The notes: generated by a model from the sequence alone, not told the origin. 64,000 bases of DNA from Bacillota bacterium (GCA_023406895.1 JAEXTV010000016.1:64663-128662); one strand, 5' to 3'. Shown: positions 3,974 to 62,249, counted from the stretch's first letter. Numbers and translations: made by a program.

Positions 3974-4090
3974 GGCTTACGTTGGGGCGTAAGCCATCCA
4001 CTGCGCAGTGGATTGCAATCCCGTGTTAAAATCGTTTTGCCATGGGATGCATTCGCCCGCTTGCTCCTCAGCATGACATGAGGAGGGGGT
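3974..4090. repeat. Composite intergenic palindromic repeat element
   Basis: Hairpins GGCTTACG..CGTAAGCC and ATCCACTGCGCAGTGGAT. The minus strand carries GTCATGCTGAGGAGCAAGCGGGCGAATGCATCCCATGG, matching the element at 44150. Confidence 0.6.
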
Positions 4091-4306
4091 TATCGGCACT
4101 CTGAAGTATACTTGTGTATACTCAAATAGGAGTCCTTTATTGCAGAAATACGATGGAGTCTTTTAGTGTCTGGCTTAAGACAGTCATGATGACTTTTGCC
4201 AATCTAAAAGGCTTGCGCGCGTTGTTCACCAAGCGGCAAGCCCATTATACTTCCTGTCGACGTATTTGTTCAGATTTTCAGTTCACATAATCATTCTCTT
4301 GTTATC

Positions 4307-6655
4307 CTACAGATGCCATATCTCCTGCGCATACTGCCTCACCGTCCTGTCAGACGAGAACTTTCCGGCCGACGCCACATTGGCAAGGCCCTTGCGCCCG
4401 AAGCTGAGCCTGTCCGCATAATCGCAGTTCACACGCAGCTTGGCTTCCACATACGGCATCAAATCGAGCAGCAGGAAGTAATGATCCGCCCGGTGCCAGC
4501 AGGCCCCCTCGAGTAACGCATCATACAGCTCCTTGAAGTAACCGAAACCGTCGTCGCTGAGTGTGCCGTCTATCAGCGTATCGAGCACGCGCTTCACCCT
4601 CGGGTTGCTCTCATAAATCGCTTTGGGGTTGTAGCTTGCGCTTTCGCGCCGGATGTCTTCCACGCGCGCCCCGAATATGTAGTTGTTGTCCTCACCGGCC
4701 TCTTCCACAATCTCCACGTTCGCGCCGTCGTACGTGCCAAGCGTGACCGCGCCGCTCAGCATCAGCTTCATGTTGCCTGTGCCGCTCGCCTCGGTGCCCG
4801 CGGTCGATATCTGCTCGGAAACATCCGCCGCCGGAATAATCGCCTCGGCATACGAGCAGTTGTAGTTCTGCACAAACACGACACGCAGCTTATCGTTCGT
4901 TTGCGGGTCTGTGTTGACGAGCCGCGCAATCTCATTGATCAGCTTGATAATCGCCTTGGCCCGAAAATATCCCGGGGCCGCCTTCGCGCCGAAAATAAAC
5001 ACCGTCGGATGAAAATCTTGAAGGCTGCCATCTTTGAGGCCGTAATAGATATCGAGTATCGACAGCGCGTTGAGCAGCTGGCGTTTGTATTCGTGCAGCC
5101 GCTTCACCTGCACATCGAATATGAATTCGGGCGGGATTTCCGTGTCCTCACGCTCGGCAATCAGCGCGGCGAGCTGCCGCTTTTTTTGCTGCTTCACGGC
5201 GTTAAAGCGATGCACAAAATCATCGTCTATGCTGTCTTTGAGCTTCCCAAGCTGACTTAAGTCAGTCAGAAAACCGCTGCCAATACGGCTTTCGATCAAC
5301 GCCGTGAGCTCCGGGTTGCAGAGCCCGAGCCAGCGCCGCTGCGTCACGCCGTTGGTCTTGTTCTGAAATTTATCCGGATACAGCTCATACCAGTTTTTAA
5401 ACACATCGTGCTTCAAAATCTCGGTATGCAGCCGGGCCACGCCGTTCACATACGTTGACATAAACACCGCGAGCCGCGCCATATGCACCGTGTCGCAGTC
5501 GATTATGCGCATGCTTCCCGTCTTTTCCGCAGGAACCCCCGCCTCACCGAGCACCGCGCAAAGCTTTTCGTCAATCCGCGTGATGATCGCTCTGATCTCC
5601 GGGATCACGGCGTCCATCAGCGCCACGTGCCATGTTTCGAGCGCCTCGCCCATCACGGTATGGTTCGTATACGAAAACGTCCGCTGCGCCATTGCAAATG
5701 CGTCGTCAAAACTGAATCCCTCAGCCATCAGCAGCCGCATCAGCTCGGGCACGCAGATCACCGGGTGCGTATCATTAAGCTGAATCGCGCAGTGCGCCGC
5801 GAATCCCGAAAGATCGCTGCCGTGTGTGCGCTTGTACCGCGCGATGATATCCTGCAGCGACGCACTCGCGAGAAAATACTGCTGCTTGAGGCGCAGCTTT
5901 TTGCCCGCGTCGTCACAGTCGTTCGGGTACAGCACGCGCGAGATATCCTCCGCGTCGTTCTTCTCCCGCACGGCCTGGGCGTAATCCTGATTGTTGAAAG
6001 CGGTAAAATCGAGTTCCTGCACCGCCTCGCTCTGCCACAGCCGCAGCGTGCCCACATGGCCGCTTTGGTAACCGATCACGGGCATGTCGTACGGCACCGC
6101 GCGAACGGTCTGATCCGCGAATGTCACCGTCACCGCCCTGTCGTCGCGGCGGCAGCTCCACGGGTCGCCGTCCGTCTGCCAATCGTCGGCGGTTTCGCAC
6201 TGCATGCCGTCGACAAACAGCTGTTTAAAAAGCCCGAACTTGTAGCGGATGCCGTAACCGTCGAGCGGCAGCGCCATCGTCGCCGCACTGTCTAAGAAAC
6301 ACGCCGCGAGACGGCCCAGCCCGCCGTTGCCGAGCGCCGCGTCCTCAATGTCTTCCAGTGCGGCTAAATCCGCGCCGCGCTCCCGCAGCTTTTCGCGCAC
6401 CTCACCCAGCACACCGAGGCAATAGAGGTTGTTAAACACCATCCGTCCGATTAAGAACTCAATAGAAAAATAATAGGCGCGCCGCGCCGTGCTATGTTTA
6501 TTTTTGCTGATGATCCAGTCGTCTGATATCAATGCCATCACGGCCTTCGAGAGCGCGTCGTGCAGCTGAGCCGCACTTGCGCTTTTCATATCCTTCTGGT
6601 AACTGCTTTTTAGGTTTTGTTCCGTCATGCGCAATATCTGGTTGCTGTCGGTCAT
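4307..6655 (-). CDS. glgP: Glycogen/maltodextrin phosphorylase
   Basis: 782 aa with the PLP-lysine motif EASGTGNMKLMLSGAVTLGTYDGANVE and a typical GT35 N-terminus. ATGA overlap with malQ. Confidence 0.95.
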   Translation of the reverse strand: MTDSNQILRMTEQNLKSSYQKDMKSASAAQLHDALSKAVMALISDDWIISKNKHSTARRAYYFSIEFLIGRMVFNNLYCLGVLGEVREKLRERGADLAALEDIEDAALGNGGLGRLAACFLDSAATMALPLDGYGIRYKFGLFKQLFVDGMQCETADDWQTDGDPWSCRRDDRAVTVTFADQTVRAVPYDMPVIGYQSGHVGTLRLWQSEAVQELDFTAFNNQDYAQAVREKNDAEDISRVLYPNDCDDAGKKLRLKQQYFLASASLQDIIARYKRTHGSDLSGFAAHCAIQLNDTHPVICVPELMRLLMAEGFSFDDAFAMAQRTFSYTNHTVMGEALETWHVALMDAVIPEIRAIITRIDEKLCAVLGEAGVPAEKTGSMRIIDCDTVHMARLAVFMSTYVNGVARLHTEILKHDVFKNWYELYPDKFQNKTNGVTQRRWLGLCNPELTALIESRIGSGFLTDLSQLGKLKDSIDDDFVHRFNAVKQQKKRQLAALIAEREDTEIPPEFIFDVQVKRLHEYKRQLLNALSILDIYYGLKDGSLQDFHPTVFIFGAKAAPGYFRAKAIIKLINEIARLVNTDPQTNDKLRVVFVQNYNCSYAEAIIPAADVSEQISTAGTEASGTGNMKLMLSGAVTLGTYDGANVEIVEEAGEDNNYIFGARVEDIRRESASYNPKAIYESNPRVKRVLDTLIDGTLSDDGFGYFKELYDALLEGACWHRADHYFLLLDLMPYVEAKLRVNCDYADRLSFGRKGLANVASAGKFSSDRTVRQYAQEIWHL

Positions 6656-10953: not shown

Positions 10954-11316
10954 TTCATCGTTGCTTAACCACCCCCGCCTTATCCGCTGATAGCGCAGAC
11001 TCTGTTCTATAACGTAAAGGCTAGTCGTCAGGTCAATGGTATTCACGTGACAGTCGCTATCGTCGAATACTCTTCATTTTTATTTGACTATAAAAGCGTC
11101 GCTATTAAAACACATATTTCCTCGAGGGAAAGCTGCTATACGTGGCTGATAAGATGTTTGTTTGAGCTTTTTTGATATCGTATTTCGTACCACCTTATCC
11201 AGCTCCCCTCGAAGAGGCGAGTCTCCTCAAATGCATTTAAGCTATCTAAGACGCATTTTTAGGCTTCTCCTTGAGGAAAAGGCTTTCACGCCACTGTTTC
11301 CATGGGGTAATCCTAG

Positions 11317-11364: not shown

Positions 11365-12954
11365 TTAAACCGCGTCGCCTGTTTTCTTATGCCGCTTCGC
11401 CTGTGTGACCAGAATCGTCACAATCGCGCCGGCAAGCACAGCCGCCACAACGACCCACAGCCACGGGAAGGGCTGAGACCCGCTGTCGAACGTGCCCGGA
11501 ATGTCCTCATCGTTGCTGCTGACATTCTGTTTGTACTGGGCTGTCACAGTAATATCGCCGACGATCTTGCTGTAATCTTTATCCCAGCTTGTGAATGTGT
11601 ATCCGCTCCGCGCGGGATTCGCGGGTGCAACGGCAGCGCTGCCATGGTTCACCGACTGAGTGCTCAGCACCTTGCCGTCAAAATCCACAAACTTGACGGT
11701 GTACGTGTTGATCTTATACAGCGCCGTCACGGTCAGGTCGCCCGTGATTTTGCTATAGTCTTTGTCCCAGCCTGTAAACGTATAGCCGTCTCTCGCCGGA
11801 TTCGCAGGAGCTGTGGCTGCGCTGCCGTAGTTCACCGACTGCGCACCCAGCACTTTGCCGTCGAAATCCACAAACTTGACGGTATACGAGTTGATCGCCC
11901 ATTTTGCGTACAGCGTCACATCACTCAGCCCCACCGCATCATTATCGAAATCCCAGTCCTGAAGGAAGGTATCGTTGTCAAGATACCAGCCCTTAAAGCT
12001 GTAACCCGTTTTGGACGGATCCGCCGGTTTCACAACTTTTCCGGCATAAGGAATCGTCTGTGGTGCCACATCATTGCCTCCGTTGGAGACAAATTTGACA
12101 TTCACGATTTTTTCAGCCACCGTCAATGTGCCCGGATTAAACGCAATGTTATAATTGTCCGATGTAAGACCGCTCGGCGTAATCGGGTACGTCCCAACCG
12201 CCGACATCGCTGCATACGTGCAGTCAATGGCAAGCGTGCCACCGAGCACGGATTCACTCTCGCCTTCCACAAAGCCGCTGTATTGTACCGTGTACGTCGG
12301 TGCGGCATCTCCAAAGACAACCGATTTGTCATCGGCAGTGACCGTCAGCGCTTTTTTACCCACAGTCAGCGTTCCGTTTTTCACACACACCATATAGTTG
12401 AAGCATTTGGGGAAAACCGAACACTTATCGATCTCAATCGGATAGCTTCCCGGGCCTTTGCCTTTCTCATAGGTGCAGCTGAGTTTCGGCGTGCCGCCAA
12501 TCACACTTTCGTCATCCGAGCCCACAAATCCGCTGATCGAATAGGTCAGCGACGGCGCGTCCTCTCCGTATGTGGCTGTTTTGTCATCGGCAGTCACCGT
12601 AATTTTGGCAGGTGTTATACAGATCTGAACCATTTTTTCGGCGAGAAGCTTGTTGCCTTTCCAAACCTGCACAAAGACGTTATGGAAACAGACGTCTTTA
12701 AACTGCGGAGCCGGAGTTGGACATCCGTCCGTCAAATATAAAACCGTGTCTCCGGGCTTAGTTCCCGATACTTGAACACCATGCCAATCGCCGTCATAGA
12801 CGCCGCTGTAACCCGATATCTCAATCTTTTGGGGGGGCATGCCCGGTCCGCCCATCGTTTCAGCCATATCGTCGCTGGCCAAAGCCGGAGACGTAAACAG
12901 GCAACTGAGCATCAGCATCACAGCAATGGCAACAACAAATCTTTTCTTTTTCAT
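11365..12954 (-). CDS. Cell-surface repeat protein (signal peptide, MBG-like repeats, Listeria-Bacteroides/Flg_new repeats, C-terminal TM anchor)
   Basis: Signal peptide MKKKRFVVAIAVMLMLSCLFTSPALA. Two segments of the type TATYGEDAPSLTYSISGFVG..GTLTV. Three G(Y)(S/T)F(K/T)GW repeats. C-terminal TM WLWVVVAAVLAGAIVTILV followed by KRHKK. Confidence 0.75.
   Translation of the reverse strand: MKKKRFVVAIAVMLMLSCLFTSPALASDDMAETMGGPGMPPQKIEISGYSGVYDGDWHGVQVSGTKPGDTVLYLTDGCPTPAPQFKDVCFHNVFVQVWKGNKLLAEKMVQICITPAKITVTADDKTATYGEDAPSLTYSISGFVGSDDESVIGGTPKLSCTYEKGKGPGSYPIEIDKCSVFPKCFNYMVCVKNGTLTVGKKALTVTADDKSVVFGDAAPTYTVQYSGFVEGESESVLGGTLAIDCTYAAMSAVGTYPITPSGLTSDNYNIAFNPGTLTVAEKIVNVKFVSNGGNDVAPQTIPYAGKVVKPADPSKTGYSFKGWYLDNDTFLQDWDFDNDAVGLSDVTLYAKWAINSYTVKFVDFDGKVLGAQSVNYGSAATAPANPARDGYTFTGWDKDYSKITGDLTVTALYKINTYTVKFVDFDGKVLSTQSVNHGSAAVAPANPARSGYTFTSWDKDYSKIVGDITVTAQYKQNVSSNDEDIPGTFDSGSQPFPWLWVVVAAVLAGAIVTILVTQAKRHKKTGDAV
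11530..11895 (-). repeat. Two tandem 183-bp (61 aa) near-identical coding repeats
   Basis: INSYTVKFVDFDGKVLGAQSVNYGSAATAPANPARDGYTFTGWDKDYSKITGDLTVTALYK is followed directly by INTYTVKFVDFDGKVLSTQSVNHGSAAVAPANPARSGYTFTSWDKDYSKIVGDITVTAQYK. Confidence 0.85.
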
Positions 12955-13376
12955 CCTTATATTCCTTTCCTAGATGGCGGCAAATATTAAGCCGCGCATG
13001 AATTGAGGCAGCCGAACGGTCATAGCGCGTGCGCTTTAGACTTCATAGCTTTGCGTCCCCGGCTTTCGCCGGGTTTGCCTTTCTCAGAAGTTGACAGAAC
13101 CATTACCAGCCATCCTTTACCGCTTGTCTTATGGCGGCCTACTCATCACAACACACTCCTTCGCAGAATTTCCCCAACATCAAAGTCTTTTGCAGACTTT
13201 TGCATCCTTTTTGCCCATACAAAATAATTCTAACATCGGGGTTGTTGTCGTCAATTTCTATTATTGTTAATATATGTCGATTTCTGTAGACTTTTTTATC
13301 GGAAAATATCATTTTGCATTGCCCACATGTTCTTGCGCCTTTTGCCATATATATAGAGCAAGAAAGCGAGGAAGCC

Positions 13377-14171
13377 ATGGAAAGCATCAAGCGCAGCGTC
13401 ATGGTGCTGAAAAGCGACAGCACCATCCCACAATTTGATCATGATATGAAGGCTGTTCTGAAGCTGCAATCATCAGGAAGCAGCCTGATTATCGATCTGT
13501 CCGCGCCATCCCTTCCTGCGCAGCCCTGTGCGCTTTATCTGTTTAATCATGAAGGAAGCGACCATTTCGCGGGTCATATAATGGAAGGAGGTCTCCGCAC
13601 CGAGCTCGTTGCATTGCCGTTGGATTCCATTGCGGGTGCTGCCGTGATCAATCCGGATACCTTCACGTTTATACTCAAATCTCAAGGCCCAAACTGGACG
13701 GATATCGCCGCACGATTCAAATTCAAACATGCTGCGCCGAAGCCCGATTTAAAAAAGCCGGAAACAGCGCCGATAGCGCCGCCTCAGCCGGAAGAACCCG
13801 TTGCGGTTCCTAAGGAGCCGCCTACACAAAGCCAGCCGCGCATCTGTGACACCTGCCCGCATGTGATTCGGCAGGATAAAATCAATCCGTTCCCGTCGGC
13901 TTTTCCGAACAGCGAATGGGTTAAAATTTCCTATCCCGGGCCCACAGGCTGGTGGCATTACATTTCCGGCAAAATCCGCAGCGGTGAAACCGTTGTCATT
14001 AAAGTGCTCGGCGTTCCGGGTGAGTACGGCATGGCCCCGCCCATTTGGCTGGAGGGATTCGGCACTTACATGCGCAGCGCCATTCCGGACGCGTCCGGTT
14101 ACTGGCTCATGTTTCAGGACGCAGAGACAGGAGAGGTTCTGGACATGGGTCTATCTCCACATGGTGTGTAA
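13377..14171 (+). CDS. Hypothetical two-domain protein with a Pro-rich linker
   Basis: ORF 13314..14171. I moved the start to MESIKRSV, which follows GAGGAAG. The N-terminal domain, a PKPDLKKPETAPIAPPQPEEPVAVPKEPP linker, and a C-terminal domain with CDTCPH and WWHYISG..GVPGEY..WLEGFG. I recognise no family with certainty. Confidence 0.55.
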   Translation: MESIKRSVMVLKSDSTIPQFDHDMKAVLKLQSSGSSLIIDLSAPSLPAQPCALYLFNHEGSDHFAGHIMEGGLRTELVALPLDSIAGAAVINPDTFTFILKSQGPNWTDIAARFKFKHAAPKPDLKKPETAPIAPPQPEEPVAVPKEPPTQSQPRICDTCPHVIRQDKINPFPSAFPNSEWVKISYPGPTGWWHYISGKIRSGETVVIKVLGVPGEYGMAPPIWLEGFGTYMRSAIPDASGYWLMFQDAETGEVLDMGLSPHGV

Positions 14172-14373
14172 GCACCTCGGAATATGAAAAGCAGTACCGC
14201 CGTTTATACCCATGCTCTTTAACAAGGACGGTAAAAACTTCAGGGTAAAGCCCTTCAATAATGCCGCCAAGTTCAACGCCGCCCCGCCGTCCGTAGCGAG
14301 TTTTCAGCGTCACACGGACACCCTTGCTAGAGCGCATCTGCTTTTTGATTGAATCCAGCGTGTCGTTCATCAT
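14107..14373 (-). CDS. veg: Veg-like protein (biofilm formation stimulator family)
   Basis: 88 aa. LDSIKKQMRSSKGVRVTLKTRYGRRGGVELGGIIEGLYPEVFTVLV..FSYSEVLT aligns by eye with B. subtilis Veg. Confidence 0.85.
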   Translation of the reverse strand: MMNDTLDSIKKQMRSSKGVRVTLKTRYGRRGGVELGGIIEGLYPEVFTVLVKEHGYKRRYCFSYSEVLTHHVEIDPCPEPLLSLRPET

Positions 14374-14833
14374 ATTCGTACCGCCTTTTTATAGGATGTT
14401 GCTATGATTCCCATTTTTTCATACCTTATCCTTCATTTGGACATCGCATCAACGCAATTTTGAATATATTTTATCTTTTGATGCATAATCTTTCGCAGCG
14501 CGGGGCAATGCTTGCACGCTAATTCGTATTGAATCCTATATAGGGTGTATAACAGAAGCATTCACAATGCATAAATCCATCCCACTTATCCACATGGTTG
14601 TCCACATTATATGAAAAAACGAGCATTTGGGACCATTATCGAGATCACAAATCTCCTGCTTTTTTTCAAAAATGAATAAAAAAAATAATGTCGATATATG
14701 TCGACACTTTATTGGCTTATATTTATTCATTAAAATATATTGAACCAAAATTTTGATAAAACCGTGACGCCAAATCCGATGACATTATGGTATAATGAAA
14801 TATCTCAATCTTGTTCAATTAAATTGGTGAAAG

Positions 14834-15949
14834 ATGAAAAAAAAGTACGACATTGTGGCGGCAGGGCATATTTGTCTTGATTTGTGTCCCACTTTCGAAA
14901 CACATCAATCACAGGATGTCGGCGCCTTTTTCCGTCCGGGCAGGCTCATCAATATGGATGGGATCACGATCTCCACCGGAGGCTCCGTGGCCAACACCGG
15001 CTTTGCCCTATCAAGAATGGGGCTTCGTGTGCTGCCCGCCGCCAAAATCGGCGACGACCCCTTTGGCACGCTGATTGCCGATATGGCGCAAAAAGAAACA
15101 GGCAGCCGCATTGCGATGCGGTCGGGCGCACGCTCATCCTATTCCATCGTGCTGACGCCGCCCGGAGTCGACAGGATTATACTGCACGATCCCGCAGGTA
15201 ACAACGAATTCAGCGCGGACGATATCGATTTTGCGCAGGTGCAGGATGCCGGTTTTTTTCATTACGGTTATCCGCCGGTCATGAGGAAAATCTATCGGGA
15301 CGGCGGCCGCGAGCTCGTTCGCCTGTTCACCGCTGCCAAGGAGACAGGCGCAGTGACATCGCTTGATATGTCACTGCCGGATCCGGAAAGCGAATCGGGC
15401 TGCGTGGACTGGTCGTCAGTGCTTGCCAAAACATTGCCGTTTGTCGATCTGTTTATGCCGAGTGCGGAAGAAGCGTTTTATATGTTGAACCGTGTTGAAT
15501 ATGAAAGAATTGCCCGGGGCGCCCCGCTAAGCTTTGCGGCTGTTCGGGCACTCGGCACGACAATCCTCGATATGGGCGCGAAGCTTGCGCTGATCAAGTG
15601 CGGTATGCACGGTATCTATATCAAAACCTCGCTCGGGATGGACGGCAGTTTTCGGGGCAGGGAAATCTTCCAGCCGTCGTACGTCGCAAAGAATTTCAAA
15701 TCGGCGCTTGGCAGCGGCGACACGGCCATTGCGGGCTTTCTTGCCGCCATGATAAAAGGCATGAGCCTCAATGACTGTGCGCGCATGGCCTGCGCGTCGG
15801 GCGCGCTCTGCTGCACCACATACGATGCCATCGGGGCCATGTGTCCCATCGGGCAGATACAAAAAATGCTGGACGGTCCGCTGAATCGGACGACGCTGCC
15901 CGAAGCGCCTTTACATTACGATAAAAAGGAACGGTTATATACAATATGA
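14834..15949 (+). CDS. PfkB-family carbohydrate kinase
   Basis: N-terminal GG motif (TGGSVANTG) and C-terminal GSGDTAIAGFLAAM. Preceded by an extended -10 (TGGTATAAT). Confidence 0.85.
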   Translation: MKKKYDIVAAGHICLDLCPTFETHQSQDVGAFFRPGRLINMDGITISTGGSVANTGFALSRMGLRVLPAAKIGDDPFGTLIADMAQKETGSRIAMRSGARSSYSIVLTPPGVDRIILHDPAGNNEFSADDIDFAQVQDAGFFHYGYPPVMRKIYRDGGRELVRLFTAAKETGAVTSLDMSLPDPESESGCVDWSSVLAKTLPFVDLFMPSAEEAFYMLNRVEYERIARGAPLSFAAVRALGTTILDMGAKLALIKCGMHGIYIKTSLGMDGSFRGREIFQPSYVAKNFKSALGSGDTAIAGFLAAMIKGMSLNDCARMACASGALCCTTYDAIGAMCPIGQIQKMLDGPLNRTTLPEAPLHYDKKERLYTI

Positions 15950-16549: not shown

Positions 16550-16551
16550 CG

Positions 16552-17953: not shown

Positions 17954-17982
17954 AAAAGAGCGGTTCATCCCGCTCTTTTTTG
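17954..17982 (+). terminator. Rho-independent terminator
   Basis: AAAAGAGCGG-ttcatc-CCGCTCTTTT followed by TTG. Confidence 0.8.
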
Positions 17983-17994
17983 TTGCTTATTAAT

Positions 17995-18040
17995 CTCTTC
18001 TCAAAGAGGAGAAGGTGGTGCGAAGCACCGGATGAGGTGT
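17995..18040 (+). repeat. Intergenic repeat, B-type arm
   Basis: CTCTTCTCAAAGAGGAGAAGGTGGTGCGAAGCACCGGATGAGGTGT. Its reverse complement recurs at 24957-25002 with one mismatch in the 32-nt core. Confidence 0.7.
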
Positions 18041-18325
18041 CAGTAAACATGCTGTCAAAACGAACACCCTATCAGCCGCCGATCGGGCCATTTTCTCAGG
18101 CAGGTATGCTGTCTGACAGTGCCGTTAAACGCAGCGACTTGTATGCCGTTTTCCGCGCCGCCTATCGCAGACAGTCCTCTGCGATCTCCCCACGGCCAGC
18201 GAACGATAAGAGGTTTTTCCACCAGTCAACGCTCCACAGCAGATACCATGATTGCATGCCTGTTTTGCGCCTCGTTTTAGCAGATAGCGAGCAAAGTCAG
18301 CAGATGAATGCTTAAACTTGCATTC

Positions 18326-24845: not shown

Positions 24846-24956
24846 AAACACATTAAGCTTCCTCTATAAGTATTAAGCCCGGGTCACACCGACGGACAAG
24901 GGAGTAAAGCCGCCGACAAGCACGTGATGAGGGCCTTAGCAAACCGTTTATGGGTA

Positions 24957-25002
24957 ACACCTCATCCGGTGCTGCGCACCACCTTCTCCTCCAGGAGAAG
25001 GC
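24957..25002 (-). repeat. Intergenic repeat, B-type arm (inverted copy of 17995-18040)
   Basis: ACACCTCATCCGGTGCTGCGCACCACCTTCTCCTCCAGGAGAAGGC. Confidence 0.7.
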
Positions 25003-25080
25003 TTTTCTCTTACATAACAAAAGCCGTATCCGAAAGAATCGAATACGGCACAGGTTATTGCTATGTCAAGCCACTCATTT

Positions 25081-25182
25081 GGTCATTCTGAACGAGCGAA
25101 GCGGAGTGACTACGAAGTGGATGAGAATCTGTCCAGATCCTATTTCACTGCGTAGTCATCGCTTCGCTCCTCTAGGATGACC
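25081..25182. repeat. Intergenic palindromic repeat, A-type (about 100-nt hairpin)
   Basis: GGTCATTCTGAACGAGCGAAGCGGAGTGACTACG pairs with the reverse complement of CGTAGTCATCGCTTCGCTCCTCTAGGATGACC. Confidence 0.7.
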
Positions 25183-34544: not shown

Positions 34545-34577
34545 GAAAGCCTTCGGCAAACACCGAAGGCTTTTTTG
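34545..34577 (+). terminator. Rho-independent terminator
   Basis: GAAAGCCTTCGG-caaaca-CCGAAGGCTTTT followed by TTG. Confidence 0.8.
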
Positions 34578-34614
34578 ATTTGATGTTTCGATAAAAGGGG
34601 CATACGCCCGCTCT

Positions 34615-34721
34615 GCCATCATGTCATTCTGACGACCGCAGGGAGGAAGAATCCCATGTCTAATATCGATAGCTGTTTTCTTGCGGTTTCTTTCAATCCT
34701 CAGTCAGCTTCGCTGACAGCT
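34615..34721 (+). repeat. Intergenic repeat unit 1 (A-type core plus CAGTCAGC hairpin)
   Basis: GCCATCATGTCATTCTGACGACCGCAGGGAGGAAGAATCCCATG...CAATCCTCAGTCAGCTTCGCTGACAGCT. Confidence 0.75.
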
Positions 34722-34755
34722 AATTAAATCAGTCTGATCTATGATTTCTCAGTTT

Positions 34756-34856
34756 GCCATCACTGTCATTCTAACGACCGCAGGGAGGAAGAATCCCATG
34801 TTCTATATCAATAGCTGGGTTATACCCTCAATCCTCAGTCAGCTTCGCTGACTGCT
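34756..34856 (+). repeat. Intergenic repeat unit 2 (direct copy, 141-nt offset)
   Basis: GCCATCACTGTCATTCTAACGACCGCAGGGAGGAAGAATCCCATG...CAATCCTCAGTCAGCTTCGCTGACTGCT. A B-type arm follows at 34895-34945. Confidence 0.75.
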
Positions 34857-34979
34857 CCTTTCCAAAGGAGCCTTCAAAACATAAACGCTTTAAGAGAAAG
34901 CCTCCTTTTGAAAGGAGGTGGCGCACGCAGTGCGACGGAGGATTGCGATATTAAAAGTCGATGTTGTCAGCGCGTCTTC

Positions 34980-35831
34980 TTATCTCAGCCCTGCTTTTCT
35001 TTCCGCCGCTTCCACCGTCTGCTCAATCAGCTTCGCAATGGTCACCGGCCCCACGCCGCCCGGCACCGGCGTGTACGCGCTCGATTTCGCCGCCGCGTTC
35101 TCCAGATCGATATCGCCCACGTAGCCGACGTTGTACCCCGCGTCAATCAGCACCGCGCCGTCCTTCACCCAGTCCGCCTGAATGAACTTCGCGCGCCCCA
35201 CGGCCGCCACGACGATATCGGCGCGCCTGACAATCTCGGGCAGATTTTTCGTTTTGCTGTGGCAAATCGTCACGGTCGCGTCTGCATTGAGCAGCAGCAT
35301 CGCCGCGGGCTTGCCAAGAATCGGGCTGCGGCCCACCACCACGGCCTCCTTCCCCGCCACATCGATGCCATACCGTTTGAGCAGCGCCATCACCGAGAGC
35401 GGCGTGGCGGGCTTAAACGCACCAAGTGCCATCGTCATCGCGCCGAAGCTGCTCGTGTTCACGCCGTCCGCGTCCTTATCCATCGCAATCGCGTTAAAGC
35501 ATCGCTGCTCATCGATCTGCGCCGGCACGGGATGCTGCAGCAGGATGCCGCAGACGTTATCATCCGCGTTGAGCTCCTCAATTTTGCTAAGCAGCTGCTC
35601 CGTCGTCGTGCTCTCCGGCAGCTCCACGCGCAGCGAATCTATGCCCACGCGCTTGCACGCGTTGCCCTTCATGCGCACATACGTGACAGACGCGGGGTTA
35701 TCCCCAACGAGTATCGTCGCAAGTACGGGCACCTTGCCCGTTTTTTCGATGACACGCCGGGCGCGCACAGTCAAATCCTCTTCAATCTCTTTGGCAAGCA
35801 CCCTGCCGTCCATGATGATGGGCTCTTTCAT
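34980..35831 (-). CDS. folD: Bifunctional methylene-THF dehydrogenase / methenyl-THF cyclohydrolase
   Basis: I moved the start to [16 protein letters not shown], which follows GGAGG. Motifs [28 protein letters not shown] and [10 protein letters not shown]. Confidence 0.95.
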
Positions 35832-35852: not shown

Positions 35853-35950
35853 CAAAAATAAAAACCGCCGGACAAGCTTATGCCCAGGCGGTCGACAATC
35901 TACAACGCCCATACTCCCCTGTGGTCAATCCACTTCCGCCAGTCGTATGG
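35853..35950 (-). promoter_or_regulatory. ZTP (pfl motif) riboswitch with terminator expression platform, upstream of folD
   Basis: On the minus strand: CCATAC-GACTGGCGGAA-GTGG-attga-CCAC-AGGGGAG-GTATGG, a linker, then CCGCCTGGGCA. P1 is CCATAC/GTATGG and P2 is GTGG/CCAC. The conserved ACUGGCG, GGGGAG and CCGCCUGGGCA blocks are all present. The terminator GACCGCC..GGCGGT plus TTTTTATTTTT shares CCGCC with the 3' subdomain. Confidence 0.85.
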
Positions 35951-35959
35951 TTCAAAAAA

Positions 35960-44061: not shown

Positions 44062-44149
44062 GAGAAAATCCTCAAGACAAGACATGATCAAATTAACAAA
44101 GAGTAAAAAAACCACCTGAGTGGCTCAGCTTGATGAAGAGCACCACCCT

Positions 44150-44243
44150 GTCATGCTGAGCGGAACGTGAGTGAAGTGAAGCATCCCATGGTTAAACGCT
44201 CTAAACATGGGATTTTTCGAGCGCTGCGCTCACTCAAAATGAC
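44150..44243. repeat. Intergenic palindromic repeat, A-type
   Basis: GTCATGCTGAGCGGAACGTGAGTGAAGTGAAGCATCCCATGG pairs with the reverse complement of CATGGGATTTTTCGAGCGCTGCGCTCACTCAAAATGAC. Confidence 0.7.
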
Positions 44244-45000: not shown

Positions 45001-45102
45001 GGTCATTCATTCGACTTTGTAGTGAACGAGTGTAGCGAAGCGAATGATCTGTTGCAACAGATCCTGTTCCACTTCGTAATCGTCGCTTTTTCAGTATGAC
45101 CG
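45001..45102. repeat. Intergenic palindromic repeat, A-type, with a central perfect 18-nt palindrome
   Basis: GGTCATTCATTCG...CAGTATGACC ends, with GATCTGTTGCAACAGATC at 45046-45063. Confidence 0.65.
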
Positions 45103-47839: not shown

Positions 47840-48144
47840 CGTTGTCCTCCCAATATCGATTGATGCCACTATACCATAACCGGCCGTCAGCGCGCCATGC
47901 CGATTTTTGGGAGGCAGCAGACGGTTTTCTCTTTAACAGTATTTACGTCATTTAATATAACAGATGTCATGAGTCGATTGATATTGATTTCATGATCATG
48001 GAAGCAGTCGATGAATCGATATCATTTAGCAACTATCTGATTACATGATCATTTCATCGATATAAGGATGCACCCCAATTAATGATGATGTGGCTGAAAA
48101 TACCGAACGAATGAGAAGACAGAGGGTTGTATCCTATGTCTTTT

Positions 48145-49893: not shown

Positions 49894-49897
49894 ATCA

Positions 49898-51976
49898 TCA
49901 TCCCCTGTTCTTCTTTTTCCGCAAAGAAAGCGTTGTGGCCCGAAGAGGCTTGTCGAACAATATAAACAACGCGGGCAGCGCAAACATGATCACCACAAAG
50001 CTGATCAGCGCACCGCGCCCGACCACCGATGCGATCTCTCTCGTCGCCTTGATCGAGCTGATCGTCGTGATGGAGAGCGTCGCAAAATAGAATGTGAGCA
50101 CGCTGGTCAGCATCGGCTTGGTGGCCGTCGCAATGGCCTGCCTGATCGCCGTCTTCGGGTCGTCTGTCCTGCGTCTGAACTCAATGTAGCGTGACGTAAA
50201 CAATATTGCGTAGTCCACTGTCGCGCCGAGCTGTATCGAGTTCACAAGCACAGGCGTTAAAAATATCATGTCTTCGCCGAAATAAAAATCCCAGCCCACA
50301 TTGATATAGATTGCGGCTTTAATCACTGCCACGAGGAAAACGGGAATCAGCAGCGAGCGGAAAGCGATCATAATGATAATAAAGATGAACACCATTGAAA
50401 TCACATCCACGGTCAGGTTGTCGGTATCCGCCGTGGAGGCCATATCCGCCGCGCTCGCGTAGGATCCCGTCACATAGCTGTCTTCACCAAAGTACTCTTT
50501 GGCGGCGGCACGCACATCGCCGATGGCGGCAAACAGCGTGTCGTTGTCCATGCCGGGCTTCATCGTCACGGTAAACCGGCGGTATGTTTCGCCCACATAC
50601 GCGTCTTTGAGCACATCCGGAATAAACGCCTCCGGCACCATCGCCGCTGCGCTGTCCGAATACGCGGCAACATCGCGCACGCTGGGAAGCGCCTTGATCG
50701 TTTGCACCGCCGCCGGCTCCGCATCCGCCAATGCCTTACCGTACAGCACATGCACGGTATCCGTGATGCCGAAGGTGTCGCTGATTTTTTCCGACGCGAC
50801 GATGGGTTTTGTGTTTTCCGGCATAAATCTATCTGAAGTATAATAATATTGCTGATTCGCGCTGCCGATGATACCCGGTATTAACGCAGCCGCCACCACG
50901 GCCAGCAGCACAAATCGGTATTTGATGAGCGGGCCGGAGAGCTTTTTGAGTGACGGCATCAGCACGCGGTGCTTGCGTTTGCCGAGCGGGTATGTGGCAA
51001 GGATCGCGCAGGGCAGAAACGTTAAGCTGATCACAAGGCTGAAAACCACGCCCTTACATAGCACGATGCCGATGTCCGCGCCGATCAGGTTCTGCATGAA
51101 CATCAGCGCGATAAACCCGGCGCAGTCGGTCAGCGCGCTGGAGGAAATGGCGGTCAGTGTCGTACGCATAGAGGAAACCATCGCCGCATTCACGTCGCCG
51201 TTGACCGTTTTCAAGTCTTCTTCAAAGCGGTGTATCAGAAATATCGAAAAGTCCATGGAGATAGCGAGCTGCAATACCGCCGCAATCGCCACAGTCAGGA
51301 ACGACACCTGATCCCGCAACAGAAAGTTTGTGCCGTAATTGAGCACAATCGCGATGCCGATATTAACAATGCATAGCAGCGGCGCGATATACGACGACAG
51401 CGAGATCGCGAGTATGCCGATCAGTATGGCCCCCGCGATGGCGAGATAAAGGCCTTGCTCACGCTGCAATGTCTGCCGGAGTTCACTTAATACCACAGGC
51501 TGCCCGCCAAAATACTCGCCGTCTTCCATCATCGCCGAAATCTCACTCACAGCGGATTCGGAAAAGTCGCTTTGATCCGCGCCCTCAAATGAAACGATGA
51601 GCAGCGTGGCATCACCCTTTTTAAACTGCGCAAGCACATCGCCGGACAAAAAATCCTCGGGCTGGTAGATATCGAGCATATCGTCCATCCACGACACGGT
51701 TTTAACGCCGTCAATGGTTTCGATGCGCTGCTTTAATTGTTTTGCCTGCCAGTTTTCTTTGCCCTCAATAAGAATATACCCTTGCGCGGAGGAGGAAAAT
51801 TCTCTGTTCTCTATGGCGCTGCCCGTAACGGAATTCGCCCCTGCGGGCATAAAGGCGGACATTTCAAAGCTCGTTTTCACAAGCGGAATGCCGAGCAGAG
51901 AAGCCCCGCAGCAAAAAATTAAGAAAATAATGACCAAAACCTTATGACGAACCAAAAACCTAAAGAGTTTATTCAT
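49898..51976 (-). CDS. MMPL/RND-superfamily membrane transporter
   Basis: I moved the start to MNKLFRFLVRHK, which follows GGTGG. Two 6-TM bundles separated by extracytoplasmic domains. Confidence 0.8.
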   Translation of the reverse strand: MNKLFRFLVRHKVLVIIFLIFCCGASLLGIPLVKTSFEMSAFMPAGANSVTGSAIENREFSSSAQGYILIEGKENWQAKQLKQRIETIDGVKTVSWMDDMLDIYQPEDFLSGDVLAQFKKGDATLLIVSFEGADQSDFSESAVSEISAMMEDGEYFGGQPVVLSELRQTLQREQGLYLAIAGAILIGILAISLSSYIAPLLCIVNIGIAIVLNYGTNFLLRDQVSFLTVAIAAVLQLAISMDFSIFLIHRFEEDLKTVNGDVNAAMVSSMRTTLTAISSSALTDCAGFIALMFMQNLIGADIGIVLCKGVVFSLVISLTFLPCAILATYPLGKRKHRVLMPSLKKLSGPLIKYRFVLLAVVAAALIPGIIGSANQQYYYTSDRFMPENTKPIVASEKISDTFGITDTVHVLYGKALADAEPAAVQTIKALPSVRDVAAYSDSAAAMVPEAFIPDVLKDAYVGETYRRFTVTMKPGMDNDTLFAAIGDVRAAAKEYFGEDSYVTGSYASAADMASTADTDNLTVDVISMVFIFIIIMIAFRSLLIPVFLVAVIKAAIYINVGWDFYFGEDMIFLTPVLVNSIQLGATVDYAILFTSRYIEFRRRTDDPKTAIRQAIATATKPMLTSVLTFYFATLSITTISSIKATREIASVVGRGALISFVVIMFALPALFILFDKPLRATTLSLRKKKNRG

Positions 51977-53097: not shown

Positions 53098-53196
53098 ATA
53101 GGGTCAATCAAACACTTCAGTCATGCAGCTGCCGAAAAAGCAGCTGCCCCATCACCTGTCGGTGACAACGGAAAAGGAATAAAATATGATAATACA

Positions 53197-53225: not shown

Positions 53226-53374
53226 TTGAAAAGTATCTTCTTCTGTTATGCAGGAAATTAACTCATTCGGTTATCCAGCTCACTGCGCATTAAAAACTGC
53301 GAAACAAACAATATCTGTAACAGATTCTTCAGTCGCTGACGCTCCATCAGAATGACACACGTTAAGTTTTCTGA

Positions 53375-57456: not shown

Positions 57457-57744
57457 TTTCAGGCACAATATCTCTAATCGGACAGCCGCAAAACATCTCA
57501 CGCCTGAGGCATCTATATGGAGAATTACTGTCTCAGCGTCATAAAAATCTCTTATATCATCCAACAGCTGCCCTTTGAGGTGGATTGCGGCTGTCACCGA
57601 CAGGTGACCGGGGGGGATAAAGAGCGGCTCAAAACCAGTCACATCACGGGCACTTCATACCGACTCCCGATTCGTCGCTTCGGAACGGGCCATCACAGGT
57701 TGGTTTCAAGGCTTAGTGGCAGCGCGAAGCAGCCTTTCTTCTTA

Positions 57745-57805: not shown

Positions 57806-58684
57806 ATGAATTCATATGCTTACAAAAAAATCGACGCGTTCACATCGGGTGAGTCTCTTGGAAATCCGGCCGCCTGCCTGTTTCTTCGCGAAGGTGAAAA
57901 ATTCACCGAAGACCAAATGCAGTTTATTGCCGCTCAGCACAAGGGCTTTGTCTCCGAAGTGGTCTATTGCTTTGAGGCTCGCGGCGAATACACGCTTTAT
58001 TATTATTCCTCCGAATGCGAAGTCAATTTCTGCGGACATGGCACCATCGCCTGTATGCACAGCCTGATCAAACAAACACCGCGTCTGCTTTCTTTAAGCG
58101 CGTTCACTGTTCGCACGCACAAAAAAGGCATTCTGACCGTTTATAACCGGATTTGCGACGAAGACGCGGTTTATATCGCCGCGCCCGAGCCCATTTTTAT
58201 CGGCACGGCGCTGACAAAAAAGGACACCGCACAGGCACTCTGCATCGCTGAAGACCGTCTGGACAGCGCGTATCCGCTCGATTTGATTGACGCGGGGCTC
58301 AGAACGCTGATCGTGCCGGTTTGCTGCCTCGCGGACGAAATCAGCCTCTATCCCGACGAATCACAGCTCAAAGCATTCTGCGAAAATGCCGATATCGACA
58401 TCGTCCTCATTTTCTCCATGCAAACTCAGGGCAGCAGCTTTCACGCACACACCCGCGTTTTCGCGCCGCGCTTCGGATACCTCGAAGACCCTGCCACCGG
58501 CTCCGCCAACAGCGCTTTCGGGCATTATATGCGCAAATACGGCTTTTGGGACGGCTCCGCCGTCGCACTTGAGCAGGGCGGTGACAACCGCGTTTTTAAC
58601 ACCGTGAGGCTGCGGGTGCACGAGGGTCATCTGCTCTTCGGCGGCAGCGCCACCGTCCGTATAAATGGGCAATATTCACTATAG
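57806..58684 (+). CDS. PhzF-family isomerase
   Basis: I moved the start to MNSYAYKKIDAFT. Motifs GNPAAC, EVNFCGHGT and EDPATGSANSAFG. Confidence 0.85.
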   Translation: MNSYAYKKIDAFTSGESLGNPAACLFLREGEKFTEDQMQFIAAQHKGFVSEVVYCFEARGEYTLYYYSSECEVNFCGHGTIACMHSLIKQTPRLLSLSAFTVRTHKKGILTVYNRICDEDAVYIAAPEPIFIGTALTKKDTAQALCIAEDRLDSAYPLDLIDAGLRTLIVPVCCLADEISLYPDESQLKAFCENADIDIVLIFSMQTQGSSFHAHTRVFAPRFGYLEDPATGSANSAFGHYMRKYGFWDGSAVALEQGGDNRVFNTVRLRVHEGHLLFGGSATVRINGQYSL

Positions 58685-59077
58685 CGAATTCGCCGCGGCA
58701 TTTTCTCTCATAAAAGCAGCACATCAAGTGTGCAAATCTTATGGAGCGGGTGATCTTCTCTGCCGTGTCCTCAACTCTTGTCATAAGATAAAGACATATT
58801 CGTCTCTTGCTTAAGCTCGTTTCGGCTTTTTTAACCTTGCCGGTACCCTGATAATACGCAAACAAGGCTGCGCAGCTTAATATTTTCACAAAGCCCCGAT
58901 CAACAGGAATGGCCTTTCCGGCGAACCTGTTTTCGTAAGATTTTTCATTTCTTAAACGTTTTCGTAAGTAAATTGCCAATTATGCTGCGATAGGTAAAAA
59001 AAGTACTTATTTACGGTAATAATAGTGCGTTCTCTATCGATACGCGCATGGTATGATGGCTGTATAACAATGATAAG

Positions 59078-60571: not shown

Positions 60572-60629
60572 GTACCATTACTCATCTTTTTCTCTTCATT
60601 GATTTGACGTTATTTCCTTTCCTTTTTGG

Positions 60630-60661
60630 TTTCTGCTATTTGTCAATAGCAGAAATTTTTT
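60630..60661 (+). terminator. Rho-independent terminator
   Basis: TTTCTGCTATT-tgtc-AATAGCAGAAA followed by TTTTTT. Confidence 0.85.
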
Positions 60662-60662
60662 A

Positions 60663-60691
60663 TTGACATGCGTAACAGTGTTATGTTACGC
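60663..60691 (+). promoter_or_regulatory. Promoter -35 box plus palindromic operator upstream of the YhbD-like operon
   Basis: TTGACA (60663-60668) is followed immediately by GCGTAACA-gtgtta-TGTTACGC (60670-60691). Confidence 0.45.
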
Positions 60692-60714
60692 TCTAAACAC
60701 AGGAGGAACAGTAA

Positions 60715-61353
60715 ATGGAAGAAGAACTGATATCCAAGAAAGACCTGCTTGAACGCGCGGATATTTCATACGGTCAGCTTTACCGCTGGAAGCGCAAAGG
60801 GCTGATTCCGGAAGACTGGTTTATCCGCAAGTCTACTTATACGGGACAGGAAACCTTTTTCCCGCGGGCCAAGGTGCTCTCGCGCATCGAAAAAATAAAG
60901 AATTTGAAAGAGGACGTCTCTCTTGATGATATTGCCGATGTGTTTTCGCCCGGTCAAGGCGATGCGGCGCTGTCGTATGAAGAAATAAAGGGCAAAGGGC
61001 TGGTGTCGTCCGACGTGCTCGATATTTACTTAAAGGACCGCGGCGAGATCACACGCTTCGATTTCAGCGAGATTCGGCTGATTTATATTTTTAATAGCCT
61101 GCTCGTCTCGGGAAGCGTCAGTCTCGATGAAGGTCGGCTCGTTCTCGACTTGCTGCGCACCGGATTGCTGCGTTTTGACGGCGCGTCTTTTGATGCGATC
61201 CTCGCGCGCAAGCTTGGCAGCTTTTGCTGCTTCGCGGTTCCCGCCGGAAGCGAAGTATGCCTTGATAAAGACATGCGGCTGTTAAGCCGCATCAGTCTGC
61301 CGGCCGTCACCGAAGAATTGAAATTAAAAATGTTTGAGGAGGAAAATAGATGA
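60715..61353 (+). CDS. YhbD-like (DUF4004) protein with a MerR-like N-terminal HTH
   Basis: ISKKDLLERADISYGQLYRWKRKGLIPEDWFIRKSTYTGQETFFPR. Confidence 0.65.
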   Translation: MEEELISKKDLLERADISYGQLYRWKRKGLIPEDWFIRKSTYTGQETFFPRAKVLSRIEKIKNLKEDVSLDDIADVFSPGQGDAALSYEEIKGKGLVSSDVLDIYLKDRGEITRFDFSEIRLIYIFNSLLVSGSVSLDEGRLVLDLLRTGLLRFDGASFDAILARKLGSFCCFAVPAGSEVCLDKDMRLLSRISLPAVTEELKLKMFEEENR

Positions 61354-62084
61354 GTCAAAATGAAGGGCTTGCTGATCTTCAGATCAGCGGATACGGCAGT
61401 GTGCCGGGCGGAAAGTTTGCATCCGTGAAGATTCTCGGGCGGGGTAAAATCACGGGGGATCTGGACTGTGAAGAATTTGTGATCAGCGGCTCGGGCGACG
61501 TGATCGGCGCGCTGACCTGTAAGCAGATGTTTGTGAACGGTTCGGGTGATATGGCCGGTGAAGTGACGACCGGCGTGCTGAAAGTGCGCGGCTCGGCCAA
61601 TTTCAACGCCCATGTTAAAGCGGATGACACATCGATATCCGGCTCAGCCACAGTGAAAAACGGCCTCGAGGCACAAACTGTAAAGGTCAGCGGATCCGTG
61701 AAAATAAAAGGCGATGTGAGCGCGGAGACCTTCAGCTCGACAGGGCGTTTTGAAGTGGACGGCCTCTTAAACGCTGAGAATGTAGATGTTCACCTTGACT
61801 GGAGCACAAGCAAAGCCAAAGAAATCGGCGGCGAATCCATCACCGTGATGAACGGCACGAAGGGGTTCAGTCTCATATCCATCGTGACGCTCGGCACACA
61901 CAGCCCGCGCCTCGAAGCGGATCTCATTGAGGGTGAGCGTATCATACTCGAAAACACCACGGCAAAAGCTGTTCGCGGTACCCATATCACAATCGGCGAC
62001 GGCTGCGACATTGGTGTTGTGGAATACAAAGGGGCTTACCACAAATCCGGCAGCGCCAAAGTGGGCGACGAGAAGAAGATCTGA
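61350..62084 (+). CDS. Polymer-forming cytoskeletal (bactofilin-like, YhbE/YhbF-type) protein
   Basis: Repetitive beta-helix-type segments (GSGDVIGALTC..VNGSGDMAGEV..VRGSANFNAHV..ISGSATVKNGL..VSGSVKIKGDV). ATGA overlap with the upstream gene. Confidence 0.7.
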   Translation: MSQNEGLADLQISGYGSVPGGKFASVKILGRGKITGDLDCEEFVISGSGDVIGALTCKQMFVNGSGDMAGEVTTGVLKVRGSANFNAHVKADDTSISGSATVKNGLEAQTVKVSGSVKIKGDVSAETFSSTGRFEVDGLLNAENVDVHLDWSTSKAKEIGGESITVMNGTKGFSLISIVTLGTHSPRLEADLIEGERIILENTTAKAVRGTHITIGDGCDIGVVEYKGAYHKSGSAKVGDEKKI

Positions 62085-62144
62085 CATTGGCTTTTGGCAT
62101 AAACCCCTTTGGTCCGCGGAATTCCAACCGCTGAAAATCTATAG

Positions 62145-62249
62145 GTTCTCCTTTGAGGAAAGGTTGTTGCCGTCCGGCGACTGAGGGGTGCGATTCCGTC
62201 ATTCAAATGCCCCTCATCCGGCCTCGGCCGCTTTCCCCCGACGGAGAAC
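62145..62249. repeat. 105-nt composite palindromic element with 7-bp terminal inverted repeats
   Basis: GTTCTCC...GGAGAAC termini. The arms are B-type (CTCCTTTGAGGAAAGGTTGTTGCCGTCCGGCGACTGAGGGGTG). The core has GATTCCGTCATTC and the hairpin GAGGGG..CCCCTC. Confidence 0.7.

Follow-up and report, generated by a model that had tools for sequence, protein, structure and literature searches.

Two unrelated families of structure-forming repeats behind genes in a Clostridia genome, one of them probably representing the ends of DUF559 elements

The 64,000-nt stretch of DNA analysed here (GCA_023406895.1 JAEXTV010000016.1:64663-128662; one strand, coordinates counted from its first letter; hereafter the window) carries two unrelated families of small structure-forming intergenic repeats, A and B, which are located behind genes and had been described in the initial annotation as one composite palindromic family. 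We consider it probable that both are widespread DNA-structure repeats, and that B represents the triplex-forming ends of elements carrying a gene for a DUF559 protein, its copies being spread or kept in trans. The window sequence is 100% identical to ENA ERZ28596070 (LEMO22-1_SAMN17278946_METAG-scaffold_3). The host is a Christensenellales-like Clostridia metagenome-assembled genome (MAG); its transketolase has 94% matches in MAGs and ~63% matches named Christensenellaceae/Christensenella. The gene inventory rests on a map derived from codon usage, together with the Pfam tables of contigs whose sequence is identical or nearly so. L-numbers (L001, L030 etc.) are labels of comparison loci fetched from other genomes, metagenomes and viral contigs.

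The repeats are real and exceed chance expectation. The strict definition of the A unit (GTCAT-N-CT, 8-40 nt, AG-N'-AT) gave 6 matches against 0.18 expected (maximum 2 in 200 order-2 Markov simulations); all 6 are intergenic, and the A and B sites all lie in intergenic DNA, as had been claimed. Two covariance models, R1 for the B module and R2 for the A unit, were both built without window sequences and recovered the B sites and the A sites of the window, respectively. The idea of a single family could not be maintained: in the same 267 kb of DUF559 loci, R1 found 256 matches and R2 only one. A and B look composite because they are adjacent within some spacers (24957-25182, 34615-34945). Most of the twelve sites initially listed proved to be members, 11196-11290 turned out to be a weak fragment, and 53105-53160 and 57565-57625 found no support.

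The B module begins with hairpin 1, made of a pyrimidine and a purine arm (CCTTCTCC/GGAGAAGG), followed by a short variable hairpin 2 and the end (C)GGATGAGGTG. When one genome per species was scanned with the core GGAGAAGGTGG-N9-15-GGATGAGGTG, it was detected at no fewer than 116 loci in Clostridia, Negativicutes, Verrucomicrobiota, Bacteroidota, Alphaproteobacteria and Bifidobacterium. The left arm, which is absent from the search pattern, was present in 121/127 of the matches listed, and 43 of these 127 copies had an inverted partner within 150 nt, either of type B' (..GGGGAAGCTGTC-hairpin-GACTGATGAGGTG) or of type B''. Hairpin 2 showed 42 different stems among the copies listed, with a C-G closing pair in 101/108, a GNA triloop in 84/108 and a contiguous stem of 4-5 bp in 84/108. 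All five of its pairs changed on both sides, no shuffle (0/500) reached the covariation score, and the slide controls scored far lower.

The third strand of the B module mirrors the purine arm: GGAGAAGG with GGATGAGG read backwards yields 8/8 allowed triads. In the variant at 34901 the arm is AAAGGAGG and the third strand GGAGGATT, so that arm and third strand covary; E. coli BoxC (GGGGAGAGGG with GGGTGAGGGG) gives 10/10 triads. A script counted 8/8 triads at 17995, 8/9 at 24957, 7/8 at 34901 and 6/7 at 34828, the shortfalls at the last three arising where the parsed arm includes one more base at its end (the cores match fully by eye), and only 5/7 and 5/6 in the copies at 62144 and 62209. When the window was scanned with the triplex rule alone, four places were found, three of which are B modules (17993-18039, 24961-25002 and 34900-34943). 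A triplex-rule match at 49895-49930 (-), at the junction of a 582-aa gene and an MMPL gene, is probably due to chance. B thus contains the three blocks of BoxC, i.e. a pyrimidine block, a purine block and a mirror-symmetric third block (G.G, A.A and T.A triads), and where BoxC has a short loop 2 (1-6 nt in ITxF), B has 9-17 nt structured as a C(GNA)G mini-hairpin. On these sequence features, B appears to be a BoxC/PIT-type intrastrand-triplex module with a variant architecture at loop 2. We read it as a DNA-level structure because RNA does not form triplexes of the purine motif (PMC4666352), while the C(GNA)G loop is a classic stable DNA mini-hairpin (PMC13037366); C(GNA)G loops occur in enterobacterial repetitive extragenic palindromic (REP) sequences too (table in PMC2817692). 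The covariation proposed initially as a sign of RNA structure was found in the B mini-hairpin and in the A stem; the RNA reading itself is considered unlikely.

Clustering the neighbours of the B copies revealed no transposase but a small DUF559 protein. At two loci (L030 and L013) the DUF559 gene lies exactly between B and an inverted B'' partner; elsewhere a B + B'' pair occurs with only 17-28 nt between the arms. In 80 metagenome loci (the 267 kb mentioned above) picked by DUF559 protein similarity alone, nearly all of the R1 matches were within ~150 nt of the gene ends, typically as B(+) upstream and B(-) downstream, i.e. as inverted ends. A sequence-only search gave 2.98 matches/kb within 200 nt of a DUF559 gene versus 0.08/kb elsewhere (37-fold). 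The single R2 match served as a specificity control, and A was rejected on the same result as an alternative end of DUF559 elements. Strictly defined (canonical) DUF559 elements (n=12) are 448-557 bp long, occur in 11 unrelated contexts and have a gap of 2-90 nt between B(+) and the ATG. Their protein of ~120 aa is a Vsr-like PD-(D/E)XK nuclease, to which 3hrl is the closest solved structure; the Vsr clade to which DUF559 belongs also includes a homing endonuclease (PMC3424549).

The association extends to E. coli, where a BoxC is located ~170 nt downstream of the DUF559 gene ycjD and an upstream hairpin ends in ATGAGGTG; R1 aligns to this BoxC with hairpin 2 collapsed to 2 nt. Triplex motifs were also present beside the DUF559 gene, mostly on both sides, in 9/9 further loci (Azospirillum, Sphingomonas, Picosynechococcus, Synechocystis, Neisseria, Deinococcus, Sinorhizobium, Klebsiella and Methylobacterium), at a density of 3.25/kb compared with backgrounds of 0.03-0.18/kb. 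Upstream of ycjD in E. coli K-12 (L345 6762-6810), the hairpin CACCTCATTCTGACAA...TTGTCAGAATGAGGTG joins the B-like tail ATGAGGTG to the 9-mer TCATTCTGA which heads A; this is a single observation and may be a coincidence. A search of the DUF559 literature found no study dealing with repeats, and Holder et al. (2015) neither linked triplex motifs to mobile elements nor mentioned DUF559/ycjD (PMC4666352).

The B family is represented in the window by the following sites (fold energies and z values given below are from nearest-neighbour DNA folding, a model which does not include triplexes):
17995-18040 (+), B module: hairpin 1 CTTCTC/GAGAAG, mini-hairpin GGTGC-GAA-GCACC, tail GGATGAGGTG; R1 47 bits, E 6e-13
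~18064-18101 (-), weak candidate for a degenerate inverted partner of the preceding module: CACCCTATCAG...; R1 E 7 only, similarity to B' partners by eye
~24880-24935 (+), putative degenerate inverted partner of the following module: conserved block in the window/L001 alignment, similar to the inverted-partner types of other B copies
24957-25002 (-), B module: GCCTTCTCC-TGGA-GGAGAAGG-T-GGTGC-GCA-GCACC-GGATGAGGTG; R1 65 bits, E 1e-18
34693-34721 (-), truncated B' module without hairpin 1: GCTGTCAGC-GAA-GCTGAC-TGAGGATTGA; R1 partial match 34703-34718
34828-34872 (-), B' module: GCTCCTTT-GGAA-AGGAGC, GTCAGC-GAA-GCTGAC, third strand GAGGATTG; R1 34835-34871(-) E 0.14
34899-34945 (+), B variant: GCCTCCTTT-TGA-AAGGAGG, CGCAC-GCA-GTGCG, third strand GGAGGATTG; R1 34901-34939(+) E 0.0055
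62144-62249, doublet B'-like(+)/B-like(-), tails inward, 18-nt spacer; R1 62144-62189(+) E 0.013, 62209-62249(-) E 0.003
11264-11281, isolated palindrome CTTCTCCTTGAGGAAAAG resembling hairpin 1, member weak or degenerate; matched in part by R1, E 0.03-0.05

The intergenic self-comparison gave one significant B pair, 17997-18040 with 24957-25000 (91% identical, E 4e-10). The module at 17995-18040 directly follows the rpsR terminator (fold z -3.3), and the segment around it, 17983-18322, is absent from the 82-90% identical relatives L119 and L122. The module at 24957-25002 is kept at the orthologous site of L001 with one compensatory change in the mini-hairpin, and its presumed partner is clearer there (CACCTCACCACGCGCC...GGCGAC...). 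The truncated B' is 97% identical to 34828-34856. Read by eye, the third strand GAGGATTG of the B' module mirrors the purine arm GAAAGGAG at 8/8 positions in an extended register, and the third strand GGAGGATTG of the B variant mirrors GAAAGGAGG at 9/9; together these two modules form a 118-nt palindrome (34828-34945; -32.2 kcal/mol, z -7.5). The doublet at 62144-62249 (z -2.7) is a gene-less form of the DUF559 element architecture. The rest of the site listed as 11196-11290 holds a tail-like match at E 2.6 only.

The sites 53105-53160 and 57565-57625 were rejected as B members (R1 E 5-8); they share only a 28-nt GTCACC-GACA-GGTGAC hairpin (E 0.008), which belongs to the spacer upstream of the PhzF gene (57565-57742) and recurs at 53147-53174. 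This spacer (L253 6278-6396) differs between 97% identical strains and keeps the block GACAGGTGACCGGGGG..GGCT.AAAA.C.GTCAC..C.CGGGCAC; it is possibly a leader RNA and not a demonstrable member of either family.

The A hairpin, with tandem sheared G.A pairs and a GNA mini-hairpin, is widespread in bacteria and in phage contigs. Its unit can be written GTC-ATNCT-GA-(inner mini-hairpin)-GA-AGN'AT-C, and the outer stem, as read directly, covaries among the window copies (ATTCT/AGAAT, ATGCT/AGCAT, ATCCT/AGGAT, ATTTT/AAAAT). A scan of IMG/VR with the 25-nt core GTCAT-N-CTGAGCG-N-AGCGAAG-N-ATC, in which the three N were free, returned more than 120 contigs among the matches listed; the first and third N pair in 147/147 of these matches (TA 81, CG 52, GC 9, AT 4, TG 1) and the middle N can be any base, i.e. 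it forms a G-N-A triloop. Longer forms carry an extra GA-bracketed layer, e.g. GA-GGAGCGAAGCGAC-GA, and the window units are of this elaborated kind. Inverted pairs generate a palindrome of ~100 nt with the ends GTCAT...ATGAC, and tandem arrays also occur.

Two related phage contigs (L139 5382 and L145 (-) 5108) have orthologous A units with a compensatory double change, ATTCT/AGAAT versus ATCCT/AGGAT, immediately upstream of the ribosome-binding sites of genes. In the unrelated environmental viral contigs L164, L176, L158 and L163, A units adjoin B'/BoxC-like modules; the two families thus occur together far outside this genome. An A doublet at L191 3007-3132 gave a sub-threshold match to the Rfam family AaHKsRNA41 (50.9 bits vs gathering 97, E 1e-8), an Aggregatibacter sRNA which may itself hold an A-like hairpin repeat. 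A literature search by sequence strings found no description of the A hairpin in the library that was covered.

The window contains the following A sites:
4017-4078 (-), A doublet with degraded right arm: left unit GTCATGCTGAGGAGCAAGCGGGCGAATGCATCCCATGG; BLAST with 44149-44214 E 7e-7; R2 4046-4077(-) E 0.13
25081-25182, A doublet, 102-nt palindrome GGTCAT...ATGACC of two units: self-palindrome BLAST E 1.6e-15; R2 25082-25129(+), 25136-25181(-)
34623-34653 (+), A unit, first copy of a 142-nt tandem duplication: R2 29.7 bits, E 8e-4
34765-34795 (+), A unit, second tandem copy: R2 24.9 bits, E 0.0067
44150-44243, A doublet, 94-nt palindrome GTCATGCTGA...TCAAAATGAC: R2 44150-44185(+) E 0.0024, 44211-44243(-) E 0.01
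45001-45102, diverged A doublet GGTCATTCATTC...CAGTATGACC: BLAST with 25054-25132 E 2e-7; R2 45060-45100(-) E 3.8; fold z -2.6
53257-53357, A doublet with degraded left arm: right unit 53323-53356(-), R2 E 0.0014

The top eight R2 matches in the window (E 8e-4 to 0.6) are A sites. The BLAST comparison between intergenic regions aligned 4017-4078 with 44214-44149 and 25054-25132 with 45128-45057. The palindrome at 25081-25182 (-28.6 kcal/mol, z -7.9), which is absent in L001 and L002, lies between the stop codon of an ABC transporter gene and its terminator. The two copies of the tandem duplication (34614-34721 and 34755-34856) are 82% identical, and the site initially listed as 53320-53362 is the right arm of the doublet at 53257-53357.

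Both families occur in both orientations behind gene ends, in line with the initial description. According to the gene map, repeats are present in 7/8 convergent and 0/11 divergent junctions (P ~1.6e-4), and every copy is located 3' of one gene or more. The canonical terminators stand apart from the repeats (~17957-17984, 25029-25060 and 34546-34580). Among 97-99% identical strains, which share ~50 kb with the window, differences were found at exactly two places, besides the 57565-57742 spacer and a gene-sized insertion. The A doublet at 44150-44243 is present in 1 copy in the window and L250, in 2 copies in L248 and in three or more in L247 and L249, the flanks being identical; the A doublet at 53257-53357 has 1 copy in the window versus 4 tandem copies in L253 (period ~107 nt). 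The comparison of insertion polymorphism between strains which had been proposed as a check showed differences in tandem copy number. In L247 and L249 (around 10955-11300), N-run scaffold gaps are placed exactly inside the tandem A array, i.e. the repeat breaks short-read assemblies. In the 82-90% identical relatives the elements are missing and the spacers are much shorter, with the exception of the B module at 24957, which is kept in L001; no insertion boundaries or target duplications could be resolved against these relatives, their intergenic DNA being too diverged.

Several side observations concern these strains. The 97% identical strain L253 has a 519-nt insertion (11656-12175) after window position 63005 (vs 63005-63011), between the DJ-1 and alkaline-phosphatase genes, which looks like the remnant of a short-chain dehydrogenase gene intact in L256. 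In the 87% identical relative L001, a type I restriction-modification island with an HTH gene (12058-15260) stands in place of the A, A, B', B series at window 34576-34992, and folD is truncated.

In the reading that we prefer, A and B copies would pile up in "safe" spacers behind gene ends. The pyrimidine and purine arms of B would form a hairpin, with the C(GNA)G mini-hairpin as the turn, and the G/A/T third strand, mirror-symmetric to the purine arm, would fold back on it. In other Clostridia two inverted B modules enclose a DUF559 gene as a compact element, and the B copies of the window would be its gene-less solo and doublet derivatives. As judged from layout and statistics, the DUF559 nuclease may spread or maintain these copies in trans, a relation like that of REP-associated tyrosine transposases (RAYTs) to REPINs and of parent insertion sequences to miniature inverted-repeat transposable elements (MITEs). 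The A palindromes amplify and collapse as tandem arrays, likely by slippage or unequal recombination at hairpin-forming DNA.

Several findings weigh against this reading. The 64-kb window has no DUF559 gene. The DUF559 homologue set descends from proteins first found via B matches and may represent one lineage, a worry which is partly answered because triplex motifs were present in nine further genera. One triad is mismatched in many of the modules that flank DUF559 genes (mean of allowed triads 0.77 vs 0.65 in controls). None of the strains compared showed a clean insertion of an element alone with defined changes at the target site, and the differences that were seen, tandem copy-number changes, need no transposase. 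No partner gene was found for A: in 40/45 inverted pairs the spacer is at most 85 nt and holds no gene or open reading frame (ORF), and a gene inside the A doublets was rejected on this count. GIY-YIG (COG2827), a candidate partner for A, had no homologue in the fetched loci, and in the viral scan only two phage homing-type genes of this type appeared, with no A unit nearby. Finally, A units lie just upstream of genes in the phage contigs that were read, a position that would also suit a role in RNA.

A broader proposal, which we advance only tentatively, is that BoxC/PIT repeats are the folded terminal repeats and miniature derivatives of pan-bacterial selfish elements whose sole gene is DUF559, with ycjD as the resident copy in E. 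coli. On this proposal the DUF559 protein would act as a nuclease specific for structure which mobilises or homes them, in a REPtron-like arrangement based on the PD-(D/E)XK rather than the HUH fold.

Among the alternatives, the one that survives best, though it is unlikely, is a RAYT-dependent REP/REPIN system, in which a domesticated Y1 (HUH) transposase, encoded once elsewhere in the genome, would recognise the hairpins and move them as single-stranded DNA. GTGG stands directly 5' of the B mini-hairpin, as does the GT[AG]G of REPs (0-2 nt 5'), while A has no such head; the B GNA triloops and CCGGATRAGGYG stem resemble enterobacterial REPs (PMC2817692), and the doublets and tandem arrays are like REPINs and bacterial interspersed mosaic elements (BIMEs). 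However, no Y1 transposase was found in the window or adjoining A or B in 2.2 Mb of fetched loci, the B stems have 4-7 bp where REPs are defined by 7-20 bp (PMC6006769), both A and B are shared between phyla, unlike the species-specific REPs, and the gene bracketed by B is DUF559. The sole full-length Y1 homologue in the fetched loci is located ~600 nt from the nearest B and has different flanking hairpins. It is an IS200-like gene on a Verrucomicrobiota contig (L100 1806-2324) with its own inverted hairpins (CCCAGCCATTTATGGCTGGG; GTCCC-GTCA-GGGAC); a second, partial Y1 match is at the edge of L081. The REP/MITE-like interpretation of the initial annotation was accordingly right in broad terms (dispersed, palindromic, intergenic repeats with doublets and tandem arrays), while a lineage-specific REP with its tyrosine transposase is not what was found.

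Slightly less likely again is an action at the RNA level, with hairpins in the transcripts that protect 3' ends, act as processing sites or terminate transcription, and with a placement that reflects this function. The position of every copy 3' of a gene would agree with it, as would the A doublet at 25081-25182, which is inside the 3' untranslated region of the ABC operon ahead of the terminator, and the phage A units directly upstream of gene starts. E. coli REPs stabilise upstream mRNA. On the other hand, the units have no U-tracts or T-runs, most B copies lie beyond the canonical terminators, both orientations occur, Rfam gave no match at the listed repeat sites at gathering or lax thresholds, and PIT elements have shown neither promoter nor terminator activity (cited in PMC4666352). 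A transcript-end role as the primary function is disfavoured because canonical terminators are separate and the purine-motif triplex and GNA triloops of B are DNA structures. Three further candidates were rejected: a mimic of the 16S 3' end (compositional likeness only), a ribozyme of the hammerhead or another type (the strings CUGA...GA and CUGAUGAG do occur, but without a matching core, and Rfam is silent), and small ORFs or 5' leaders downstream of the window B copies (the downstream ORFs are mutually unrelated and one B faces a convergent gene).

The weakest alternative, that B modules are mere leaders and trailers of DUF559 genes and the solos immobile decay scars, is very improbable: the tail GAGGTG/GAGGAG does occupy a ribosome-binding-site position 5-7 nt ahead of the start codon in L322 and L030 (in L322, 5 nt separate GAGGTG from the ATG, while the second module starts 11 nt after the stop codon) and the B(+)-ATG gap is short, but DUF559 is present in only 6 of the 116 B-selected loci listed, doublets with 17-60 nt spacers recur in many contexts, and no DUF559 remnant adjoins the window B copies.

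Other features of the window lie outside both families. The sole Rfam matches are a c-di-GMP-I riboswitch at 13004-13089 (-), upstream of a Flg_new/MBG surface-protein gene (11365-12954), and a ZTP riboswitch at 35875-35956 (-), upstream of folD (34980-35831). A 183-nt direct repeat (78% identical) at 11531-11896 is not intergenic and represents repeated protein domains within the Flg_new/MBG gene. An AT-rich nested palindrome at 47948-48063 (TCATGATCATG, ATCGAT motifs; E 3e-6), in the spacer between an LplA-like gene and the 582-aa gene, is unrelated to A or B and is possibly an operator.

Since 1992, BoxC/PIT sequences have been orphan repeats, in E. coli as well as in hundreds of further genomes. 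The BoxC/PIT/TM repeats are abundant, extremely conserved and tied to genome instability, and we know of no origin or enzyme assigned to them. Among uncharacterised nuclease domains, DUF559 ranks with the commonest, and the tight association of B/BoxC with it from Clostridia to E. coli gives each of them a testable function. If the proposed relationship is true, it would be a second nuclease-plus-miniature-repeat system beside RAYT/REPIN. The A hairpin, for its part, drives length variation at the strain level. On the practical side, both repeats seed spurious ORFs and assembly gaps.

Several known systems resemble parts of this picture. I-Bth0305I, a Vsr-fold homing endonuclease of the same PD-(D/E)XK clade (PMC3424549), is like DUF559 a small Vsr-like nuclease on a selfish element, but is encoded in a group I intron and without triplex modules. 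The mini-hairpin d(GCGNAGC) (Hirao; PMC13037366) recurs as C(GNA)G or GCGNAGC at the hairpin tips of both A and B, although the known natural mini-hairpins are single sites (phage or plasmid replication origins, the N4 promoter) and not dispersed families. MITEs (Correia/NEMIS, RUP) are likewise non-autonomous palindromes of ~100 nt with terminal inverted repeats, and B has a longer gene-carrying relative. The termini GCCTTCCCC...GGGGAAGGC and GGTCAT...ATGACC are inverted repeats here too, but the flanks are AT-rich (TAAA/TATA) with no consistent target-site duplication, the termini are folded modules, no DDE transposase was seen, and the gene-carrying form of B encodes DUF559, not a known transposase (none was found for A). 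REP/BIME/REPIN sequences with RAYT (TnpA_REP) share with A and B the short intergenic palindromes behind genes, the inverted doublets, the tandem arrays and GNA-type loops, and the B layout of one small nuclease gene flanked by inverted copies is REPtron-like; the enzyme of REPs is an HUH Y1 transposase in contrast to the PD-(D/E)XK DUF559 of B, and REPs have longer stems and species-specific sequences. Compared with BoxC/PIT/TM_ECO (Bergler 1992; Hoyne 2000; Holder et al. 2015, PMC4666352), B differs in loop 2 (TTA or CCG in E. coli versus the covarying C(GNA)G of 9-17 nt), in the arms (CCCCTCTCC/GGAGAGGGG versus CCTTCTCC/GGAGAAGG), in its Clostridia MAG host and in bracketing DUF559 genes; Holder et al. 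reported no link to mobile elements. The two nevertheless have in common the pyrimidine and purine arms with a mirror G/A/T third strand, the strictly intergenic location in both orientations, the two subtypes arranged as inverted pairs (62144-62249 and 34828-34945 in the window), the rearranged loci and a very high conservation across many genomes.

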